A DNA stretch of 64,000 bases from Escherichia coli (GTDB taxonomy: Bacteria; Pseudomonadota; Gammaproteobacteria; Enterobacterales; Enterobacteriaceae): assembly GCF_013122565.1 (NCBI RefSeq), contig NZ_CP053258.1. The stretch is one strand, 5' to 3'. Under the pieces are notes generated by a model. That model did not search any database, was not told the origin of the DNA, and saw nothing but the letters and a program-made list of their open reading frames with translations. Numbering within the stretch: position 1 is the stretch's first letter; each line of letters starts with the position of its first letter. Positions 2,244 to 15,167 of the stretch are shown here, one piece after another. A program made the translations under genes and the position numbers.

Positions 2244-2804
2244 TCAAAACTGAAAGCGCATCCAGGCAAAGTACACATTGCCATTGTTGTAGGTACCCGG
2301 AATGTAGGTCATCTGAAAAGTCACTGGACCATAACCCACGGAGGCCAATGGCAGTAGAACCGGGAGAGGGATGTAATTCCAGTTATCGCGCGCCGTTACG
2401 CCGGCGGTGAATCCCAGACCTAAATGAAAATTTTCATCCGCCAGCGGTCGCCAGGTACTTTCCCATCCGTATCCGGCAATCGGTTCCCATTTGTTCCACG
2501 AGTCCTTAAATGCCATGGCATACAGGCCATGCCAGTTTCCTTTTTCATCCCAACGCGACTGACCAAAACCGCCACCCCACGGTCGCTCGTTATAGCGATC
2601 GGTTTTTTCTTTGTCGTAAGCGAAACGTGCATGCCAGGTGATGGCAGGAATATATAAATCATAATGTTCAGGCTGTTGCCAGGTTTGTGCAATATTTTCT
2701 CTAAACGTTGTCATCCACTCATCTGCGTTAGCAAAAACTTTACCAACGCTGATTAACTGAATAAAAACAAAGGAAAATATAGCGACATATTTACTCACGT
2801 TCAT
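2244..2804 (-). CDS. pagP: lipid A palmitoyltransferase PagP (186 aa)
   Basis: Internal ATG of track ORF 2244..2828 ([25 protein letters not shown] signal peptide); outer-membrane beta-barrel pattern; plus-strand cat at 2802-2804 confirms the ATG. Confidence 0.92.
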
Positions 2805-3284
2805 TTGTGACCATAAAACATTTATCAAAAATCTACTACTAGCATAGCAAAGCTACAATTAACATAACCTTAATAGCTCCAACATAAAGAATAATCTGAA
2901 TAGCTGCTCTATTTATTTCCGCTTGTTTAAGTTAAATATTTCCGCGCATCGATTTAAAATGATACATCGTTTTCTGCGATGGGAATAGTCATAAAAGAAA
3001 AAGCAAGTTATTACTGATAACAAAATGCAATCAAGAAAAAAATGACTTATTTTTTAATAAGATACAAAAAATTATCTTAACAAAGAATATATTATATATC
3101 GTCAACCCACGCCCATTATAGATTATTTTTTGAGCACACAACCGCAGCTAACACCATTGCAATTAACAAATTTGCATCAATCTACCATCAATTTACACAC
3201 ATTATTATGTGATAATTGCCAACTGTTAAATATGCGTTTTGTTATCTATGTATAAAAACAGCAACTTCAATGTCTTAATGGCAG

Positions 3285-3310
3285 TTTTTCTTGATTTTAA
3301 TCAGCATTCA
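3285..3310 (+). promoter_or_regulatory. FNR-like site candidate upstream of dcuC
   Basis: ttgattttaatcag resembles TTGAT-N4-ATCAA with one mismatch, about 90-100 bp upstream of the dcuC ATG. Confidence 0.3.
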
Positions 3311-3393
3311 CCGCCAATTTATTGGGCATATTTTTTCCTTAAGTTTTAGGAATTTTTTATTATTTACTTTGGGGCCTGGAGACAGGAAAAATT

Positions 3394-4779
3394 ATGCTGA
3401 CATTCATTGAACTCCTTATTGGGGTTGTGGTTATTGTGGGTGTAGCTCGCTACATCATTAAAGGGTATTCCGCCACTGGTGTGTTATTTGTCGGTGGCCT
3501 GTTATTGCTGATTATCAGTGCCATTATGGGGCACAAAGTGTTACCGTCCAGCCAGGCTTCAACAGGCTACAGCGCCACGGATATCGTTGAATACGTTAAA
3601 ATATTGCTAATGAGCCGCGGCGGCGACCTCGGCATGATGATTATGATGCTGTGTGGCTTTGCCGCTTACATGACCCATATCGGCGCGAATGATATGGTGG
3701 TCAAGCTGGCGTCAAAACCATTGCAGTATATTAACTCCCCTTACCTGCTGATGATTGCCGCCTATTTTGTTGCCTGTCTGATGTCTTTGGCCGTCTCTTC
3801 CGCAACCGGTCTGGGCGTTTTGCTGATGGCTACTCTGTTTCCGGTGATGGTAAACGTTGGTATCAGTCGTGGCGCAGCAGCTGCCATTTGTGCCTCCCCG
3901 GCGGCGATTATTCTCGCACCGACTTCAGGGGATGTGGTGCTGGCGGCACAGGCTTCCGAAATGTCGCTGATTGACTTCGCCTTCAAAACGACGCTGCCTA
4001 TCTCAATTGCTGCAATTATCGGCATGGCGATCGCCCACTTCTTCTGGCAACGTTATCTGGATAAAAAAGAGCACATTTCTCATGAAATGTTAGATGTCAG
4101 TGAAATCACCACCACTGCTCCTGCGTTTTATGCCATTTTGCCGTTCACGCCGATCATCGGTGTACTGATTTTTGACGGTAAATGGGGTCCGCAATTACAC
4201 ATCATCACTATTCTGGTGATTTGTATGCTGATTGCCTCCATTCTGGAGTTTCTCCGCAGCTTTAATACCCAGAAAGTTTTCTCTGGTCTGGAAGTGGCTT
4301 ATCGCGGGATGGCAGATGCGTTTGCTAACGTGGTGATGCTGCTGGTTGCCGCTGGGGTATTCGCTCAGGGGCTTAGCACCATCGGCTTTATTCAAAGTCT
4401 GATTTCTATCGCTACCTCGTTTGGTTCGGCGAGTATCATCCTGATGCTGGTATTGGTGATTCTGACAATGCTGGCGGCAGTCACGACCGGTTCAGGCAAT
4501 GCGCCGTTTTATGCGTTTGTTGAGATGATCCCGAAACTGGCGCACTCTTCCGGCATTAACCCGGCGTATTTGACTATCCCGATGCTGCAGGCGTCAAACC
4601 TGGGCCGTACCCTTTCGCCCGTTTCTGGCGTAGTCGTTGCGGTTGCCGGGATGGCGAAAATCTCACCATTTGAAGTCGTAAAACGCACCTCGGTGCCGGT
4701 GCTTGTTGGGCTGGTGATTGTTATCGTTGCTACAGAGCTGATGGTGCCAGGAACGGCAGCAGCGGTCACAGGCAAGTAA
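3394..4779 (+). CDS. dcuC: anaerobic C4-dicarboxylate transporter DcuC (461 aa)
   Basis: Track ORF 461 aa, polytopic membrane protein; ATG at 3394 preceded by a ggagacagg SD-like sequence. Confidence 0.95.
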   Translation: MLTFIELLIGVVVIVGVARYIIKGYSATGVLFVGGLLLLIISAIMGHKVLPSSQASTGYSATDIVEYVKILLMSRGGDLGMMIMMLCGFAAYMTHIGANDMVVKLASKPLQYINSPYLLMIAAYFVACLMSLAVSSATGLGVLLMATLFPVMVNVGISRGAAAAICASPAAIILAPTSGDVVLAAQASEMSLIDFAFKTTLPISIAAIIGMAIAHFFWQRYLDKKEHISHEMLDVSEITTTAPAFYAILPFTPIIGVLIFDGKWGPQLHIITILVICMLIASILEFLRSFNTQKVFSGLEVAYRGMADAFANVVMLLVAAGVFAQGLSTIGFIQSLISIATSFGSASIILMLVLVILTMLAAVTTGSGNAPFYAFVEMIPKLAHSSGINPAYLTIPMLQASNLGRTLSPVSGVVVAVAGMAKISPFEVVKRTSVPVLVGLVIVIVATELMVPGTAAAVTGK

Positions 4780-4784
4780 ATAGT

Positions 4785-4816
4785 AATGCCGGAGGCAAGT
4801 TTCCTCCGGCTTTATC
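4785..4816. terminator. hairpin terminator in the 40-bp gap between convergent dcuC and dpiA
   Basis: gccggagg-caagttt-cctccggc followed by tttat. Confidence 0.65.
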
Positions 4817-4819
4817 ATG

Positions 4820-5500
4820 TCACCCACTGTGGTATATGCGTTGCGGTCTGCCAACTTTGCCGTGAACAATTTCAGCAATAATCAGATGGCGGCTGGCGCA
4901 ATATTCAAGATAACGCCTGGCAGTGGTGCGGCTGATGGTCAATGCCTGCGCCACCGTTTCTGCCGTATGTTGCACACCAGGCTCTTTGAACAATTTTCGC
5001 ACCGCGTTTAGCGTCAAGGGGTCAATGCCGGTCGGCAGTTCGTCTTTGGGTTCACCACGAGCATAGGCATTAAACATCTCATCAATTTGCTTCTGGCTGG
5101 CGCTATCAATACTTTCCAGCATATGTTTACGCTGGCGGAAACGGGTTAGCGTTTGCCCCAGCCGTTCATAGGCAATTGGCTTGATGAGATAATCAAATAC
5201 ACCACAACGTACGGCTTCAGACACCGTTTCCATATCGCTGGCTGCAGTGGTAAACACCACGTCGCCGGGATAATGCGCCTGCACCAGTTCATGCAGTAAA
5301 TTAATCCCTCTACCGTCAGGAAGATAGTTATCGAGCAAGATTAGCCCCGGCTTAAAACGCTCGATCATCATTCGGGCCTGCGCCAGGTTTCCCGCCAGTA
5401 ATATCTGACTGAATCCGGGAATGTGACGAATATATTCCGCATGCATCTCTGCCAGCGGCGTTTCGTCCTCAACGATCAATAGGGTTAATGGAGCTGTCAT
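4820..5500 (-). CDS. dpiA: two-component response regulator DpiA/CitB (226 aa)
   Basis: Track ORF 226 aa with receiver domain (LIVEDE...D) and C-terminal HTH; first 10 codons overlap the 3' end of dpiB. Confidence 0.93.
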   Translation of the reverse strand: MTAPLTLLIVEDETPLAEMHAEYIRHIPGFSQILLAGNLAQARMMIERFKPGLILLDNYLPDGRGINLLHELVQAHYPGDVVFTTAASDMETVSEAVRCGVFDYLIKPIAYERLGQTLTRFRQRKHMLESIDSASQKQIDEMFNAYARGEPKDELPTGIDPLTLNAVRKLFKEPGVQHTAETVAQALTISRTTARRYLEYCASRHLIIAEIVHGKVGRPQRIYHSG

Positions 5501-7127
5501 TAGGTTTCACTTTCGGAATATAGATTGAAAATAAGGTACCGCAGGGATCATTATCTTCGAGAGTGATAACACCACCGCAGCGCGTTACGTAGCTGGCAAT
5601 CAAGTACAACCCAATGCCATGTTCACCGGGCTCGTCAGCACGCGTACTGACCCCCTGCTCAAATATTTTGTCTCGTAGAGACTCTGGAACGCCGCAGCCC
5701 TGATCGGCGACTTCAATCACCACATCATCGCCTTCATCGCTGAGGAATAATTCAACGATCTTGTTTCCTTCATCGCTACGCAGGCTGGCTTCGAAGGCGT
5801 TATCAAGTAAATTGCCCACAATGGCGGCAAACTCGGTGCTATCCAGTCCTGGCGGCAGTTGCGAAAGCTGGCTACCGGGGACGATGATCATTTTTAGCCC
5901 CAGTTCCCGGGCGCGCTGCACTTTACCAAAAAGCAGCCCCGCCACCTGGCGATCGGCAAACGCCTCGCGCAGGCTGTCAATAAGCTGTTGCTGTGCCTGA
6001 GACTCCCCCTGCACCATCGCCAGCACGCGATCATACTCTTTCATCTGCAACAGACCATTGAGCGTCGACATCCAATTGAGATGCTCGTGTCGCAATGTAC
6101 GAAGGCTCTCGACGTATTGTTTTATTTGCGTCAGTTGCGCATTGAGGGTGGAAATTTCGTCTTTACTACGAAAGCTGATAATGGCCCCCAGCAAATCATC
6201 ACCTGAACGAATAGCTTCCCGATTGGCAATAACGCTCAGACCGTTAAAGTTAGCCACCACATCCTGACGTTTTTCATCAATCTGTTCGGTAAAGAAATCG
6301 GCGGGCCTGACCACTTCAGCAATGGGTTTACCCAACCATTGCCGTCCGGGGGAACTCAGCCCCAGCATCTTTCTTGCGTTACGATTGATGGCGGTAATGT
6401 AACCGTGCGGATCCACCGCAATCAGCCCTTCATAAACCGAACTAAATAGCGCCTCTTGCTGACGGACCACGCGTGCGATTTGCTTTGGCTCCATGCCCAT
6501 CATCTGCCGACGGATATGCGCGGCCAGGAACCACGACAGCAACATCAGAATCCCTAACAGCACGACAAACACACCTGCCATTGGTAATAAAAACTCAGCC
6601 CGCCAGCTATCGATTTTACTCACCAGGTAGCCAATCGACACCACGCCGATGACTTTTCCATCGTCATCAAAAATTGGCGTTTTGGCGCGCATCGCCATGC
6701 CCATTGACCCTTTCCCGGTAATGAAGTAGCTCTCCCCTTTCTCCAGCGCGCCCTGTTTGGTGAACTGCATAGGATGACCAATTTTCTCCGGATTAGGATG
6801 GTAAAGGCGGATCGAGTGCCGGTCGCCAATCACCACATAATCAAAATCGGTATCTCTTTGTAATTTGTTAGCGATGGTCGCCAGCCGTTTGTAGTCACGC
6901 GTTTTTACTGCGCTGATGATACTGTCATTAGAAGCAATAATTTTCGCCTGATTCATTGCCATGTCGCGTACATGAAGCGTTAAATAGTCCTCAAAACTGG
7001 CCGTAAAATATTGCGCCAGGGCTGCAATGACAAATATTGAGAACACCAGAATCAGCAAAAAGATACGCAGCGGAAATGCCAGTCTTTGGAAAAATGCAAA
7101 CTGTTTATTCTCGTTAAGCTGCAACAT
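5469..7127 (-). CDS. dpiB: sensor histidine kinase DpiB/CitA (552 aa)
   Basis: Track ORF 5469..7187 trimmed to internal Met (MLQLNENKQFAFFQRLAF...) to give 552 aa; periplasmic sensor plus HATPase_c motifs. Confidence 0.9.
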   Translation of the reverse strand: MLQLNENKQFAFFQRLAFPLRIFLLILVFSIFVIAALAQYFTASFEDYLTLHVRDMAMNQAKIIASNDSIISAVKTRDYKRLATIANKLQRDTDFDYVVIGDRHSIRLYHPNPEKIGHPMQFTKQGALEKGESYFITGKGSMGMAMRAKTPIFDDDGKVIGVVSIGYLVSKIDSWRAEFLLPMAGVFVVLLGILMLLSWFLAAHIRRQMMGMEPKQIARVVRQQEALFSSVYEGLIAVDPHGYITAINRNARKMLGLSSPGRQWLGKPIAEVVRPADFFTEQIDEKRQDVVANFNGLSVIANREAIRSGDDLLGAIISFRSKDEISTLNAQLTQIKQYVESLRTLRHEHLNWMSTLNGLLQMKEYDRVLAMVQGESQAQQQLIDSLREAFADRQVAGLLFGKVQRARELGLKMIIVPGSQLSQLPPGLDSTEFAAIVGNLLDNAFEASLRSDEGNKIVELFLSDEGDDVVIEVADQGCGVPESLRDKIFEQGVSTRADEPGEHGIGLYLIASYVTRCGGVITLEDNDPCGTLFSIYIPKVKPNDSSINPIDR

Positions 7128-7507
7128 TGTTTTCCTTGCGGGTTGTCCCGAACCTCTTTGACGGATGTAATTAAAATGTTGAATCAAAATACATAGATAT
7201 TAATTATGATCGTGGCAAATTTTATTCATTAAATCAATTAAATCACTTAAACCTGCGGGTCATTTCGCAATTACATTAATTAAAAAACTTAAAACCATTA
7301 AATAAATAAAAAACCACTAACTCTATGTGAAATAAATCAAAATTTCACGCCGAAATACTCCTTAGGATGTATAGCGAAAGGAGAAAAAGATATACCTCGA
7401 TCGCCCTCCCTTTCTCCCAAGTGAAAATAAAAGGTTATCAGTTTGCAACATTGAACAACATTCGTTGCAAATCGATAACAATATGCACCTTCAGGATACT
7501 ATTTATT

Positions 7508-8566
7508 ATGTTCGGCAATGATATTTTCACCCGCGTAAAACGTTCAGAAAATAAAAAAATGGCGGAAATCGCCCAATTCCTGCATGAAAATGATTTGAGC
7601 GTTGACACCACAGTCGAAGTATTTATTACCGTAACCCGCGATGAAAAGCTTATCGCGTGCGGTGGAATTGCCGGAAATATTATTAAATGCGTTGCTATCA
7701 GTGAATCCGTTCGCGGTGAAGGACTGGCGCTAACATTAGCCACTGAATTGATAAACCTCGCCTATGAGCGGCACAGCACGCATCTGTTTATTTATACCAA
7801 AACCGAATACGAGGCGCTGTTCCGCCAGTGCGGTTTTTCCACGCTGACCAGCGTACCTGGCGTGATGGTGCTGATGGAAAACAGCGCCACGCGACTGAAA
7901 CGCTATGCCGAATCGCTGAAAAAATTTCGTCATCCAGGGAACAAGATTGGCTGCATTGTGATGAACGCCAATCCCTTTACGAATGGTCACCGTTATCTGA
8001 TTCAACAGGCTGCGGCACAGTGCGACTGGTTGCATCTGTTTTTAGTCAAAGAAGATTCTTCACGCTTCCCCTATGAAGACCGGCTGGATCTGGTGTTAAA
8101 AGGCACCGCCGATATTCCACGTCTGACTGTGCATCGCGGCTCCGAATACATCATCTCCCGCGCTACGTTCCCTTGCTACTTCATTAAAGAACAGAGCGTC
8201 ATTAACCATTGTTACACCGAAATTGATCTGAAGATTTTCCGTCAGTACCTCGCTCCCGCGCTGGGTGTAACTCACCGCTTTGTCGGTACTGAACCCTTTT
8301 GTCGCGTTACCGCCCAGTACAACCAGGATATGCGCTACTGGCTGGAAACGCCGACTATCTCCGCACCGCCCATCGAACTGGTTGAAATTGAGCGGCTGCG
8401 TTACCAGGAGATGCCGATATCCGCTTCCCGGGTACGTCAACTGCTGGCGAAAAACGATCTCACGGCTATCGCGCCGCTGGTCCCTGCAGTCACGCTGCAT
8501 TATTTGCAGAACCTGCTTGAGCACTCCCGCCAGGACGCGGCAGCTCGTCAAAAGACCCCCGCATGA
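7508..8566 (+). CDS. citC: [citrate (pro-3S)-lyase] ligase CitC (352 aa)
   Basis: Internal ATG (MFGNDIFTRVKRSENKKMAEI...) of track ORF 7367..8566; heads the citCDEFXG operon. Confidence 0.9.
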   Translation: MFGNDIFTRVKRSENKKMAEIAQFLHENDLSVDTTVEVFITVTRDEKLIACGGIAGNIIKCVAISESVRGEGLALTLATELINLAYERHSTHLFIYTKTEYEALFRQCGFSTLTSVPGVMVLMENSATRLKRYAESLKKFRHPGNKIGCIVMNANPFTNGHRYLIQQAAAQCDWLHLFLVKEDSSRFPYEDRLDLVLKGTADIPRLTVHRGSEYIISRATFPCYFIKEQSVINHCYTEIDLKIFRQYLAPALGVTHRFVGTEPFCRVTAQYNQDMRYWLETPTISAPPIELVEIERLRYQEMPISASRVRQLLAKNDLTAIAPLVPAVTLHYLQNLLEHSRQDAAARQKTPA

Positions 8567-8580
8567 GAAACAGGTGAAAA

Positions 8581-8877
8581 ATGAAAATAAACCAGCCCGC
8601 CGTTGCAGGCACCCTTGAGTCTGGGGATGTGATGATACGCATCGCCCCACTCGATACGCAGGATATCGACCTGCAAATCAACAGCAGCGTTGAGAAACAG
8701 TTTGGCGATGCAATTCGCACCACCATTCTGGACGTTCTCGCCCGCTACAACGTGCGCGGCGTACAGCTGAATGTCGATGACAAAGGCGCACTGGACTGCA
8801 TTTTACGTGCACGACTGGAAGCCCTGCTGGCACGCGCCAGCGGTATCCCGGCTCTGCCATGGGAGGATTGCCAATGA
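8581..8877 (+). CDS. citD: citrate lyase acyl carrier protein, gamma subunit (98 aa)
   Basis: Track ORF 98 aa ([24 protein letters not shown]...). Confidence 0.93.
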
Positions 8878-9782
8878 TTTCCGCTTCGCTGCAACAACGT
8901 AAAACTCGCACCCGCCGCAGCATGTTGTTTGTGCCTGGTGCCAATGCCGCGATGGTCAGCAACTCCTTCATCTACCCGGCTGATGCCCTGATGTTTGACC
9001 TCGAAGACTCCGTGGCATTACGTGAAAAAGACACCGCCCGCCGCATGGTTTATCACGCGCTGCAACATCCGCTGTATCGCGATATTGAAACCATTGTGCG
9101 TGTCAACGCGCTGGATTCCGAATGGGGTGTTAACGACCTGGAAGCCGTCGTTCGCGGTGGTGCGGACGTTGTGCGTCTGCCGAAAACCGATACCGCTCAG
9201 GATGTTCTGGATATCGAAAAAGAGATCCTGCGTATCGAAAAAGCCTGTGGTCGTGAACCCGGCAGCACCGGCCTGCTGGCGGCGATTGAATCTCCGCTGG
9301 GCATTACCCGCGCAGTGGAAATCGCTCACGCTTCCGAGCGTTTGATCGGTATCGCCCTCGGTGCAGAAGACTATGTGCGCAACCTGCGTACAGAACGCTC
9401 CCCGGAAGGAACTGAACTGCTGTTCGCTCGCTGCTCCATTTTGCAGGCCGCGCGCTCTGCGGGTATTCAGGCGTTCGATACCGTCTATTCCGACGCTAAC
9501 AACGAAGCCGGATTCCTGCAAGAAGCCGCCCACATCAAACAGCTGGGATTTGACGGCAAATCGCTGATCAACCCGCGTCAGATTGATCTGCTGCACAACC
9601 TCTACGCACCAACCCAGAAAGAAGTGGATCACGCCCGCCGCGTCGTAGAAGCCGCTGAAGCCGCCGCTCGCGAAGGCCTCGGCGTGGTTTCCCTGAACGG
9701 CAAGATGGTGGACGGTCCGGTTATCGATCGCGCCCGTCTGGTGCTCTCCCGTGCAGAACTTTCCGGCATCCGCGAAGAATAA
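8874..9782 (+). CDS. citE: citrate lyase beta subunit / citryl-CoA lyase (302 aa)
   Basis: Internal Met ([27 protein letters not shown]) of track ORF 8859..9782; 4-nt overlap with citD. Confidence 0.92.
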
Positions 9783-9792
9783 GGCAATCAAA

Positions 9793-11325
9793 ATGACGCA
9801 GAAAATTGAACAATCTCAACGACAAGAACGGGTAGCGGCCTGGAATCGTCGCGCTGAATGCGATCTTGCCGCTTTCCAGAACTCGCCAAAGCAAACCTAC
9901 CAGGCTGAAAAAGCGCGCGATCGCAAACTGTGCGCCAACCTGGAAGAAGCGATTCGTCGCTCTGGTTTACAGGACGGCATGACGGTTTCCTTCCATCACG
10001 CTTTCCGTGGCGGTGACCTGACCGTCAATATGGTGATGGACGTCATCGCAAAGATGGGCTTTAAAAACCTGACCCTGGCGTCCAGCTCCCTGAGTGATTG
10101 CCATGCGCCGCTGGTAGAACACATTCGCCAGGGCGTGGTTACCCGCATTTATACCTCCGGCCTGCGTGGTCCACTGGCGGAAGAGATCTCCCGTGGTCTG
10201 CTGGCAGAACCGGTGCAAATCCACTCTCACGGCGGACGTGTGCATCTGGTACAGAGCGGCGAATTGAATATCGACGTGGCTTTCCTCGGCGTCCCGTCCT
10301 GTGATGAATTCGGTAATGCCAACGGCTACACCGGTAAAGCCTGCTGCGGCTCCCTCGGTTATGCAATGGTTGATGCCGACAACGCAAAACAGGTCGTGAT
10401 GCTTACCGAAGAACTGCTGCCTTATCCGCATAATCCGGCAAGCATTGAGCAAGATCAGGTTGATTTGATCGTCAAAGTTGACCGCGTTGGCGATGCCGCG
10501 AAAATCGGCGCTGGCGCGACCCGTATGACCACTAACCCACGCGAACTGCTTATTGCCCGTAGCGCTGCGGATGTGATTGTCAACTCTGGCTACTTCAAAG
10601 AAGGTTTCTCCATGCAAACCGGTACCGGTGGCGCGTCGCTTGCGGTAACCCGTTTCCTGGAAGACAAAATGCGTAGCCGCGATATTCGCGCCGACTTCGC
10701 CCTCGGCGGTATTACCGCGACGATGGTTGATCTGCACGAAAAAGGTCTGATCCGCAAACTGCTGGATGTGCAGAGCTTTGACAGCCATGCTGCGCAATCG
10801 CTGGCCCGTAACCCCAATCACATCGAAATCAGCGCCAACCAGTACGCTAATTGGGGTTCGAAAGGCGCATCGGTTGATCGTCTCGACGTGGTGGTACTGA
10901 GCGCGCTGGAAATTGACACCCAGTTCAACGTTAACGTACTGACCGGCTCTGACGGCGTACTGCGCGGCGCTTCCGGTGGTCACTGCGATACCGCGATTGC
11001 CTCTGCGCTTTCCATCATCGTCGCGCCGCTGGTACGCGGTCGTATTCCGACTCTGGTGGATAACGTGCTGACCTGCATCACCCCGGGCTCCAGTGTCGAT
11101 ATTCTGGTCACAGACCACGGTATCGCAGTTAACCCGGCACGTCCGGAACTAGCAGAACGTCTGCAGGAAGCGGGCATTAAAGTGGTTTCCATTGAGTGGC
11201 TGCGCGAACGTGCGCGTCTGCTGACCGGTGAACCACAGCCGATTGAATTCACCGACCGCGTCGTTGCCGTTGTGCGTTACCGCGATGGCTCGGTGATCGA
11301 TGTTGTGCATCAGGTGAAGGAATAA
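9793..11325 (+). CDS. citF: citrate lyase alpha subunit / citrate CoA-transferase (510 aa)
   Basis: Internal Met (MTQKIEQSQRQERVAAWNRRAE...) of track ORF 9751..11325. Confidence 0.92.
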   Translation: MTQKIEQSQRQERVAAWNRRAECDLAAFQNSPKQTYQAEKARDRKLCANLEEAIRRSGLQDGMTVSFHHAFRGGDLTVNMVMDVIAKMGFKNLTLASSSLSDCHAPLVEHIRQGVVTRIYTSGLRGPLAEEISRGLLAEPVQIHSHGGRVHLVQSGELNIDVAFLGVPSCDEFGNANGYTGKACCGSLGYAMVDADNAKQVVMLTEELLPYPHNPASIEQDQVDLIVKVDRVGDAAKIGAGATRMTTNPRELLIARSAADVIVNSGYFKEGFSMQTGTGGASLAVTRFLEDKMRSRDIRADFALGGITATMVDLHEKGLIRKLLDVQSFDSHAAQSLARNPNHIEISANQYANWGSKGASVDRLDVVVLSALEIDTQFNVNVLTGSDGVLRGASGGHCDTAIASALSIIVAPLVRGRIPTLVDNVLTCITPGSSVDILVTDHGIAVNPARPELAERLQEAGIKVVSIEWLRERARLLTGEPQPIEFTDRVVAVVRYRDGSVIDVVHQVKE

Positions 11326-11328
11326 GCC

Positions 11329-12733
<1,405 letters not shown>

Positions 12734-12783
12734 TTATTTAAGCACTTGATAAATTTGGAAATATTAATTTTCGGAGAACCCGT

Positions 12784-14247
12784 ATGTCTTTAGCAAAAGA
12801 TAATATATGGAAACTATTGGCCCCACTGGTGGTGATGGGTGTCATGTTTCTTATCCCTGTCCCCGACGGTATGCCGCCGCAGGCATGGCATTACTTCGCT
12901 GTGTTTGTGGCAATGATTGTCGGCATGATCCTCGAGCCAATTCCGGCAACAGCGATCAGTTTTATTGCGGTTACTATTTGCGTTATTGGCAGTAATTACC
13001 TGCTCTTTGATGCCAAAGAATTAGCTGACCCAGCGTTTAATGCGCAAAAACAGGCACTGAAATGGGGTCTGGCTGGTTTTTCCAGCACCACGGTATGGCT
13101 GGTATTTGGCGCATTTATTTTTGCATTAGGGTATGAAGTTTCCGGGTTAGGTCGTCGCATTGCCCTTTTCCTGGTGAAATTCATGGGCAAACGCACGCTG
13201 ACGTTGGGTTATGCGATTGTCATTATCGACATTCTGCTGGCACCGTTTACACCGTCCAACACCGCGCGTACCGGGGGTACGGTTTTTCCGGTCATTAAAA
13301 ACCTGCCGCCGCTGTTTAAATCATTCCCGAACGATCCGTCCGCGCGTCGTATTGGCGGCTATTTAATGTGGATGATGGTCATTAGTACCAGTCTGAGTTC
13401 GTCTATGTTTGTCACCGGTGCGGCACCAAACGTGCTGGGTCTGGAGTTCGTCAGCAAAATTGCCGGTATCCAGATTAGCTGGTTGCAGTGGTTCCTCTGC
13501 TTCCTGCCGGTTGGGGTTATCTTGCTTATCATTGCGCCGTGGCTTTCCTACGTGCTGTACAAACCGGAAATCACACACAGTGAAGAAGTGGCAACCTGGG
13601 CGGGTGATGAACTAAAAACCATGGGGGCGCTGACACGCAGAGAGTGGACGCTGATTGGCCTTGTATTGCTCAGCTTAGGTTTGTGGGTATTTGGCAGTGA
13701 AGTCATTAATGCTACTGCGGTTGGTCTGCTGGCAGTTTCGCTAATGCTGGCCCTGCACGTTGTGCCGTGGAAAGACATTACCCGTTATAACAGCGCATGG
13801 AACACGCTGGTCAACCTGGCAACTCTGGTTGTGATGGCTAACGGCCTGACTCGTTCTGGTTTTATTGACTGGTTCGCCGGTACCATGAGTACGCACCTGG
13901 AAGGATTCTCACCAAACGCAACGGTGATTGTACTGGTTCTGGTGTTCTACTTTGCACACTACCTGTTTGCCAGCCTGTCTGCGCACACCGCAACCATGCT
14001 GCCGGTTATTCTGGCCGTCGGTAAAGGTATTCCGGGCGTACCAATGGAACAACTGTGTATCCTGCTGGTGCTGTCTATCGGTATCATGGGCTGTCTGACG
14101 CCGTATGCAACCGGTCCTGGGGTGATTATTTATGGCTGTGGCTATGTGAAATCAAAAGATTACTGGCGTCTTGGCGCAATCTTCGGGGTGATTTACATCT
14201 CTATGTTGCTGTTGGTTGGCTGGCCGATTCTCGCCATGTGGAACTAA
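12784..14247 (+). CDS. citT: citrate:succinate antiporter CitT (487 aa)
   Basis: Track ORF 487 aa, polytopic DASS-family transporter pattern; stop TAA at 14245-14247. Confidence 0.93.
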   Translation: MSLAKDNIWKLLAPLVVMGVMFLIPVPDGMPPQAWHYFAVFVAMIVGMILEPIPATAISFIAVTICVIGSNYLLFDAKELADPAFNAQKQALKWGLAGFSSTTVWLVFGAFIFALGYEVSGLGRRIALFLVKFMGKRTLTLGYAIVIIDILLAPFTPSNTARTGGTVFPVIKNLPPLFKSFPNDPSARRIGGYLMWMMVISTSLSSSMFVTGAAPNVLGLEFVSKIAGIQISWLQWFLCFLPVGVILLIIAPWLSYVLYKPEITHSEEVATWAGDELKTMGALTRREWTLIGLVLLSLGLWVFGSEVINATAVGLLAVSLMLALHVVPWKDITRYNSAWNTLVNLATLVVMANGLTRSGFIDWFAGTMSTHLEGFSPNATVIVLVLVFYFAHYLFASLSAHTATMLPVILAVGKGIPGVPMEQLCILLVLSIGIMGCLTPYATGPGVIIYGCGYVKSKDYWRLGAIFGVIYISMLLLVGWPILAMWN

Positions 14248-14278
14248 TACGTTCGCCAAACGCTGAATAAATCATCAC

Positions 14279-14312
14279 GCCCGCCAGGTAAGCCCACCTG
14301 GCGGGCTTTTTT
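14279..14312 (+). terminator. intrinsic terminator of the cit operon after citT
   Basis: gcccgccaggt-aagccc-acctggcgggc followed by TTTTTT. Confidence 0.75.
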
Positions 14313-14360
14313 ATGATTTAATAGATAGTATTCAGTGTATGTATGAGTTCCACACCCATT

Positions 14361-15167
14361 ATGAAAGCATTCTGGCGTAACGCCGCGTTGCTCGCGGTTT
14401 CTCTGCTTCCCTTCTCTTCTGCCAACGCCGTGGCGTTGCAGGCAAAACAGTATGGCGATTTTGATCGCTATGTCCTTGCCCTCTCCTGGCAAACCGGATT
14501 TTGCCAGAGTCAACACGATCGAAATCGTAACGAACGAGATGAATGTCGCCTGCAAACCGAAACGACCAACAAAACTGATTTTCTGACCGTACATGGTCTG
14601 TGGCCAGGATTGCCTAAATCGGTTGCTGCCCGTGGTGTTGATGAACGCCGCTGGATGCGCTTCGGTTGCGCTACTCGCCCAATCCCAAATCTGCCAGAAG
14701 CGCGCGCCAGCCGGATGTGTTCATCGCCGGAAACCGGGTTATCACTGGAAACGGCAGCTAAACTAAGTGAAGTCATGCCAGGAGCTGGCGGACGTTCCTG
14801 CCTGGAACGCTACGAATATGCCAAACACGGTGCCTGCTTTGGTTTTGATCCGGACGCATACTTCGGTACGATGGTACGCCTGAATCAAGAAATTAAAGAG
14901 AGCGAAGCCGGAAAATTCCTTGCGGATAATTACGGTAAAACAGTGAGCCGCCGTGACTTTGACGCCGCCTTTGCCAAAAGCTGGGGAAAAGAGAACGTGA
15001 AAGCAGTTAAGCTAACGTGCCAGGGTAACCCTGCGTATTTGACTGAAATTCAGATCTCGATCAAAGCTGACGCCATCAACGCTCCGCTTTCTGCAAACTC
15101 ATTCTTGCCACAACCACACCCAGGCAACTGTGGCAAAACCTTTGTGATTGATAAAGTGGGTTATTAA
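14361..15167 (+). CDS. rna: periplasmic ribonuclease I (RNase T2 family, 268 aa)
   Basis: Internal Met (MKAFWRNAALLAVSLLPFSSANA signal peptide) of track ORF 14343..15167; HGLWP motif of RNase T2. Confidence 0.92.
   Translation: MKAFWRNAALLAVSLLPFSSANAVALQAKQYGDFDRYVLALSWQTGFCQSQHDRNRNERDECRLQTETTNKTDFLTVHGLWPGLPKSVAARGVDERRWMRFGCATRPIPNLPEARASRMCSSPETGLSLETAAKLSEVMPGAGGRSCLERYEYAKHGACFGFDPDAYFGTMVRLNQEIKESEAGKFLADNYGKTVSRRDFDAAFAKSWGKENVKAVKLTCQGNPAYLTEIQISIKADAINAPLSANSFLPQPHPGNCGKTFVIDKVGY

Follow-up and report, generated by a model that had tools for sequence, protein, structure and literature searches.

The 380-bp spacer between dpiB and citC, at positions 7128-7507 of the window (the whole 64-kb stretch of Escherichia coli DNA that was analysed), is very probably the divergent promoter and operator region of dpiBA (citAB) and citCDEFXG-citT and the orthologue of the K-12 spacer, with the 399-aa open reading frame that extends citC into it being an artefact. 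The evidence consists of the coordinates, composition and orthology of the spacer, the conservation of sequence blocks and of their spacing, the disruption of the extended frame in other genomes and the conservation of the citC start at 7508. The sequence-only reading had described a 380-bp spacer between the two divergent start codons, and its coordinates proved exact, since the spacer lies between the dpiB ATG (7125-7127, minus strand) and the citC ATG (7508-7510). The identities of the genes at the locus were obtained from the list of open reading frames and from matching E. coli records annotated in RefSeq, K-12 MG1655 among them. The genes and their ribosome-binding sites are arranged as follows.

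3394-4779, plus strand: dcuC
4820-5500, minus strand: dpiA
5469-7127, minus strand: dpiB (citA), 552 aa, annotated and conserved start ATG at 7127
7128-7507: dpiB-citC spacer, 380 bp
7133-7137, minus strand: Shine-Dalgarno sequence AAGGA of dpiB, 5 nt ahead of the ATG, read directly from the sequence
7493-7496, plus strand: Shine-Dalgarno sequence AGGA of citC, 11 nt ahead of ATG 7508, with cAGGa (or GGG) equally spaced in most related loci
7508-8566, plus strand: citC, 352 aa, start ATG at 7508
Downstream of citC: citD, citE, citF, citX, citG and citT (citT at 12784-14247)

When the N-terminus of dpiB was compared with other loci by tblastn, the matches began at residue 1, which is encoded by ATG in most related loci. 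The mechanical list of open reading frames over-extends dpiB as well, to a TTG at 7187 (572 aa; minus strand, 5469-7187), and this is the same type of artefact as the extension of citC.

The G+C content of the spacer was 0.318 compared to 0.519 for the window (68% vs 48% A+T), and only 0.75% of the 380-nt windows in the 64 kb were equally AT-rich. Within the core of the spacer (7217-7316) it fell to 0.21, and 'extremely' AT-rich, the earlier wording, is fair for Escherichia. The A/T string quoted in the sequence-only reading occurs once, at 7275. The pentamer TTAAA was found seven times in the spacer, on the plus strand only, and four of its pairs have a spacing of exactly 9 bp. So many pairs did not arise in any of 300 dinucleotide-preserving shuffles, indicating that the repeats are not an artefact of composition. 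The description of the spacer as dominated by A/T repeats was thereby borne out, both the TTAAA array and a pair of 19-bp repeats (below) being non-random. A second spacer in the window, on the pagP/dcuC side upstream of dcuC (about 2617-3471), is even AT-richer, with a minimum G+C content of 0.27, and a near-consensus FNR-type site, TTGATTTTAATCAG (one mismatch), is located there at 3291-3304, about 90 bp before the dcuC ATG.

Orthology was established with an 851-nt query across the spacer, which found matches with 95-99% identity in 5,419 of the 5,426 complete E. coli genomes, every match being placed between genes annotated as dpiB and citC. Query coverage was at least 80% in 5,373 genomes, again at 95-99% identity. 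In a full-length alignment with K-12 the spacer showed about eight differences and one 2-nt indel, so that the proposed divergent control region could be identified as the orthologue of the K-12 dpiB/citC spacer, to which it is approximately 98% identical. Over a longer stretch (3000-15000 of the window), none of the 5,426 genomes exceeded 98.8% identity to the cit/dpi locus. A divergent dpiB/citC pair around an AT-rich spacer was likewise present in 51 related loci from Citrobacter, Salmonella, Enterobacter, Hafnia, Buttiauxella, Atlantibacter, Pluralibacter, Edwardsiella, Providencia, Pragia and other genera, with spacers of about 305-560 bp (most about 380-390 bp) and a G+C content of 0.21-0.42. 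The divergent dpiB/citC arrangement is much older than Escherichia. A mobile-element remnant or horizontal transfer as the cause of the AT-richness was ruled out, as synteny, spacer length and blocks are conserved across families. Two of the database matches look like contamination or mislabelling of public assemblies: a 484-nt contig of about 1x coverage (L080) in a Clostridia assembly labelled Terrisporobacter mayombei carries a CitC fragment 99% identical to that of the window, and a locus labelled Chryseobacterium sp. 18061 (L033) carries an enterobacterial-type citC (77%).

A phylogenetic footprint was constructed from 13 aligned spacers ranging from Escherichia to Edwardsiella. Conserved blocks were located at 7165-7181, 7208-7221, 7229-7251, 7275-7322, 7324-7346, 7354-7372 and 7421-7462, separated in part by segments that vary freely (7128-7164, 7184-7207 and 7376-7420). 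The identity of the blocks to the window was 0.8-0.96, compared to 0.34-0.52 at the 4-fold degenerate sites of citC in those of the species outside Escherichia. The two blocks closest to dpiB are the following.

7165-7181: block A, ATGTAATTAAAATGTTG, a direct repeat (TGTAA-N6-TGTTG) lying 38-54 bp ahead of dpiB and kept from Escherichia to Edwardsiella
7208-7221: block B, GATCGTGGCAAATT, conserved in the cross-genus alignment

The mean identity of block A was 0.83 against about 0.46 at 4-fold sites. It might, speculatively, be part of the dpiB promoter or an ArcA-like site; compared with the ArcA consensus TGTTAATTAAATGTTA, block A had more than three mismatches, and no match was found within three. 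Other searches of the region were negative. An Rfam 15 scan of 6500-8200 returned two chance-level hits only (E values of 1.7 and 6.9, far below gathering), and generic sigma-70 and terminator scans called no promoter or terminator in the spacer. The missing sigma-70 call is expected for an activator-dependent promoter and is no positive evidence for one. Two small minus-strand open reading frames in the spacer, of 27 and 39 aa, were set aside; that at 7337-7420 lies largely in the variable segment 7376-7420, and that at 7362-7481 also spans the conserved blocks F (7354-7372) and G (7421-7462).

Between block B and the citC promoter, the AT-rich core contains two copies of a 19-bp direct repeat.

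7236-7254, plus strand: box I, AATTAAATCACTTAAACCT, the upstream copy, with TTAAA array at 7229, 7238 and 7247; candidate operator for phosphorylated DpiA (DpiA~P)
7278-7296, plus strand: box II, AATTAAAAAACTTAAAACC, the downstream copy, with TTAAA array at 7280, 7289 and 7298; candidate operator for DpiA~P

The boxes are in direct orientation and 42 bp (four helical turns) apart, and the centre of box II falls at about -88 from the predicted citC start site. They were the only matches to the 19-bp pattern in the window, which shows uniqueness alone as the pattern was derived from them. Across the 51 related loci, including Serratia, Pragia and Edwardsiella, the core of the boxes, AATTAA..A.(A/T)TAAAAACCA, was found at a fixed distance from the TGTGA site described below, relative to which the TTAAA occurrences peaked at -97, -88 and -79 and at -46, -37 and -28. 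A biosensor built in E. coli from the Citrobacter rodentium orthologue bears on the function of this part of the spacer (PMC12405535). Its authors placed the DpiA-binding sites by aligning it with the K-12 sequence in EcoCyc. A fusion of the entire spacer to the reporter at the counterpart of ATG 7508 was citrate-responsive and nitrate-inhibited, while the 'delta dpiA operator sites' construct, which starts at CATCTAACTCTTTGTGAAATAAATCAAA (about 7315 in the window), had lost citrate induction. Since the construct beginning at about 7315 lost the citrate response, the DpiA operators should be located upstream of 7315, where both boxes sit, and we infer that boxes I and II may be these operators. 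The control of the cit operon by DpiAB, which the sequence-only reading had given as background on the family, is supported by the failure of citrate to induce the C. rodentium orthologue lacking the part upstream of about 7315. In Klebsiella, binding of CitB to A+T-rich targets in the citC/citS control region is indicated by the title of Meyer et al. 1997, as cited in PMC2735749.

Downstream of the boxes, the following elements were recognized in front of citC.

7326-7341: CRP/FNR-family site TGTGAAATAAATCAAA, TGTGA-N6-TCAAA, centre at 7333.5
7356-7371: NarL-like 7-2-7 site TACTCCT-TA-GGATGTA, overlapping the -10 hexamer, 12/14 to TACYYMT-NN-AKRRGTA, in a block conserved across genera
7363-7368, plus strand: predicted -10 hexamer TAGGAT, with ATG 7367 inside it, 22 nt downstream of TCAA
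7373-7377, plus strand: predicted citC transcription start (about 7375), from promoter geometry

The site at 7326-7341 matches the CRP core at 9 of 10 positions and, read as GTGAA-N4-ATCAA, the FNR core at 8 of 10. It was assigned to the CRP/FNR family because its half-sites are fixed across genera in the 51 loci while the six-base spacer between them varies. The site is a hybrid: its left half, TGTGA, is of the CRP type, and its right half is of the FNR type, being TCAA and never TCAC in the 51 loci, from Escherichia to Serratia and Pragia. In an alignment of 33 sequences, T7363, A7364 and T7368 were the only invariant columns upstream of block G, and the hexamer takes the forms TACGAT, TAAGAT, TATTAT, TACTAT, TACCAT and TAATCT elsewhere; with this TAnnnT signature, TAGGAT was read as a -10 element. 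Within the window there is a single match to the composite TGTGA-N6-TCAA-N22-TANNNT, against an expectation of 0.01, and in the 51 related loci the composite is found exactly once, upstream of citC and on the citC strand. The distance from the site centre (7333.5) to the first base of the -10 hexamer, 29.5 bp, is invariant across genera, while that from the -10 hexamer to the ATG ranges from about 57 to 258 nt in the related loci. If transcription starts near 7375, the CRP/FNR-type site would be centred at -41.5, the geometry of a class II promoter. For citC and dpiB, the supplementary data of Kim et al. 2012 and of Conway et al. 2014 yielded no start sites.

The NarL-like site is the sole match in the window, yet 2.4 matches are expected by chance in 64 kb, and its overlap with the -10 hexamer alone could explain its conservation. 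Over 64 kb, neither the CRP-like nor the NarL-like match taken by itself exceeds chance expectation, and both draw their weight from position and conservation. Nitrate is reported to inhibit the C. rodentium PcitC sensor and is said to do so in the E. coli system as well (PMC12405535), and the literature on E. coli and the C. rodentium orthologue describes anaerobic induction by citrate together with nitrate repression (PMC12405535; PMC4683798). The cit genes are unmentioned in the comparative regulon paper of Ravcheev 2007.

The predicted citC leader is about 133 nt long and contains three further features.

7399-7412: C-tract length polymorphism, a variable leader segment; GATCGCCCTCCC here, GATCACCCCC in K-12, GATCACCCCCC in O157 and most others
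7421-7462, plus strand: block G, TGAAAA.AAAA.GTTATCA..TTGCAAC....ACAACAT, beginning with GTG 7421
7434-7449/7464-7479: inverted repeat forming a minus-strand hairpin with 16-nt arms and a 14-nt loop, followed by CCUUUUAUUUU (7433-7424)

Block G is conserved in Escherichia, Citrobacter, Salmonella, Hafnia and Buttiauxella. RNAalifold predicted zero consensus pairs for the leader of 21 Escherichia, Citrobacter and Salmonella sequences, which rules out a conserved leader RNA structure, and the fold of the plus-strand leader was no better than that of shuffled sequences (z -1.3). Block G could be an undescribed operator or a single-stranded RNA element (CA/AAC-rich, of Hfq- or CsrA-type) controlling citC translation. 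The fuller proposal, in which block G is such an operator or RNA element and the hybrid site upstream is also read by both CRP and FNR, for carbon and oxygen signals, seems to us rather unlikely. In Atlantibacter and in one locus labelled C. freundii M-21 (L030, L032 and L081 taken together), a G+C-rich hairpin followed by a T-run, GCCTGCGTTGCGGGCTTTTTTATT, is present in the citC leader some 70-110 nt ahead of citC (between 2386 and 2500 in the numbering of each locus). It resembles a plus-strand terminator or attenuator, for which Escherichia has no counterpart at that place.

Three in-frame starts were considered for citC: ATG 7367 (399 aa), GTG 7421 (381 aa) and ATG 7508 (352 aa). The N-terminal pattern MFGN..F..VKRSEN, with an ATG and AGGA or GGG about 11 nt upstream of it, is conserved in about 55 loci, and CitC homology in other genera begins at M1 of the 352-aa form by tblastn. 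In the same 55 or so loci no conserved upstream start was detected, the upstream frame closing after 1-72 codons. The RefSeq/PGAP and K-12 annotations both give a CitC of 352 aa, and the working C. rodentium reporter was fused at the ATG equivalent to 7508 (PMC12405535). Initiation at ATG 7367 would add a 47-residue N-terminal extension and reduce the true spacer to 239 bp. The frame 7367-8566 is indeed open in this window and leads in register to ATG 7508, 47 codons further on, and ATG 7367 is conserved as DNA across Escherichia; however, it is conserved as part of the -10 hexamer and NarL-like block and not as a codon, it lies upstream of the predicted transcription start, and an AGG directly abuts it with no spacer. 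The extension has no conserved start in other genera. Its frame, moreover, depends on the C-tract, which reads CCCTCCC here, CCCCC in 1,244 genomes including K-12 and CCCCCC in 2,643 including O157. A difference of 1 or 2 nt breaks the frame, so that it is closed in K-12 and open here, and ATG 7367 and citC are in different frames in at least 3,887 of the 5,426 complete E. coli genomes, about 1,500 genomes being outside both counted classes. All 11 genomes of a spread sample were 1 or 2 nt shorter than the window across the aligned stretch, and the C-tract allele of the window, GATCGCCCTCCC, was found in none of the 5,426. Taken with the maximum identity of 98.8%, this places the source in an Escherichia/Shigella lineage that lacks near relatives among the complete E. 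coli genomes compared. ATG 7367 thus appears to be in frame merely through a C-tract variant private to this lineage, and initiation there is hardly credible. The older annotation with 381 aa, that of O157:H7 EDL933 (citC 733079..731934, per Fellner et al.) employed in PMC4683798, starts at GTG 7421, which is in frame in all E. coli examined because it is downstream of the indel. This start is very improbable too: the codon is CTG in five other Escherichia species, the CCCTTTCTCCCAA before it offers no purine-rich ribosome-binding site, the 29 additional codons show no protein-level conservation in other genera, and the current RefSeq start is ATG 7508. With ATG 7367 within the -10 hexamer, its frame broken in most genomes, and ATG 7508/MFGN and AGGA conserved, the 399-aa open reading frame is in all probability an artefact. 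The suspicion of the sequence-only reading was thus well founded, and the evidence, including the 352-aa annotation, the homology from M1 and the reporter fusion, points to initiation at 7508 and away from 7367.

Two further explanations concern the spacer itself, and both are compatible with the reading of 7128-7507 as a divergent control region. The AT-richness might mainly reflect not specific DpiA operators but binding of H-NS, Fis or IHF, or intrinsic curvature, silencing the locus with phased TTAAA tracts as bending elements, as the G+C content of 0.21 in the core and the phased A-tract-like repeats would allow. We consider this improbable. Even in genera in which neutral sites have reached saturation, the repeats have kept both their exact bases and their register with the promoter, which argues for sequence-specific recognition; their 9-bp phasing is off the helical repeat of about 10.5 bp expected for curvature; and the deletion in the C. 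rodentium orthologue led to loss of citrate induction, not to derepression (PMC12405535). The second explanation assigns the citC-proximal end of the spacer to an antisense gene.

7438-7743, minus strand: nog1 open reading frame, GTG start, 306 bp, 101 aa, antisense to the 5' end of citC

This open reading frame corresponds to the published nog1 by its size, antisense position and spacing to the old citC start. Given the 352-aa citC start, its last 70 nt and the stop codon fall inside the spacer, and 7438-7507 with the hairpin 7434-7479 would serve nog1 by encoding its C-terminus and stop codon and by supplying an intrinsic terminator that would also keep antisense read-through out of dpiBA. 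The frame is intact here and in all five other Escherichia species examined, and Fellner et al. 2015 (PMC4683798) reported a transcript, 5'-RACE and a competition phenotype for nog1 in O157:H7 but did not detect the native protein. The minus-strand hairpin (-18.9 kcal/mol, z -3.1; 16 pairs including one internal mismatch) is followed by a U-run, and Escherichia alone has the right arm of the repeat, matching the reported range of nog1. The hairpin is terminator-like, yet it was not called by the consensus terminator scan, its stem being A/U-rich and its loop 14 nt long, and the substitutions within Escherichia are not clearly compensatory. In addition, the left arm belongs to block G, which is conserved far beyond the range of nog1 and therefore must have another function. 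A role of this segment in nog1 expression is accordingly possible, if doubtful.

For the divergent control region, which remains the preferred reading, a working model can be proposed in which the assignment of proteins to blocks and the position of the transcription start are predictions. Citrate-activated DpiB would phosphorylate DpiA, and DpiA~P would bind the A/T-rich operators upstream of the citC promoter, tentatively placed at 7236-7254 and 7278-7296. A protein of the CRP/FNR family would bind TGTGA-N6-TCAAA (7326-7341), 29.5 bp upstream of TAGGAT, with transcription starting near 7375. Binding at the NarL-like site (7356-7371), over the -10 hexamer, could mediate nitrate repression by occlusion of the promoter. 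The leader of about 133 nt would then be transcribed, and translation would begin from ATG 7508 behind the AGGA at 7493-7496.

As the K-12 citC/dpiB control region this feature has been described before, and nothing in it is new in kind; regulation of that region by DpiAB, anaerobiosis and nitrate has been called 'well-characterised' (PMC12405535). At most, the analysis adds some detail in the form of a finer map, the hybrid nature of the CRP/FNR half-sites and the conserved leader block. For annotation, the 352-aa CitC start is right, and neither the 399-aa nor the older 381-aa open reading frame should be propagated. The cross-genus footprint also provides a compact, testable map of a promoter that is now employed as a gut citrate biosensor, comprising two candidate DpiA boxes, a putative class II CRP/FNR-type site, the predicted -10 hexamer with its NarL-like overlap and the conserved leader block.

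Compared with the K-12 MG1655 citC-dpiB (citA) region (NC_000913.3 651857-652234), which is regulated by DpiA/CitB, the spacer has the same genes, orientation, blocks, boxes, CRP/FNR-type site and -10 hexamer. It differs in length, 380 bp here against 378 bp in K-12, through the C-tract (CCCTCCC vs CCCCC), and in a handful of substitutions. The open reading frame 7743-7438 has the same length, GTG start and position relative to citC as nog1 of O157:H7. The description of nog1 as 'completely embedded' in citC was based on the 381-aa annotation (PMC4683798) and hinges on that outdated citC start, whereas here the last 70 nt are located in the spacer. With class II CRP/FNR sigma-70 promoters, in which the site is at -41.5, the predicted citC promoter shares the 16-bp core site, the TAnnnT spacing and the lack of a recognisable -35 element, but its half-sites are mixed, CRP-type GTGA and FNR-type TCAA. 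The citS-citC region of Klebsiella pneumoniae (Meyer, Dimroth & Bott 1997, 2001, as cited in PMC2735749) is, as described there, also divergent and has A+T-rich CitB targets and CRP sites. It represents a paralogous type of locus, in which citS-oadGAB-citAB faces citCDEFG and the sensor genes are at the end of an operon instead of directly divergent, and its likeness to the present spacer is one of description.
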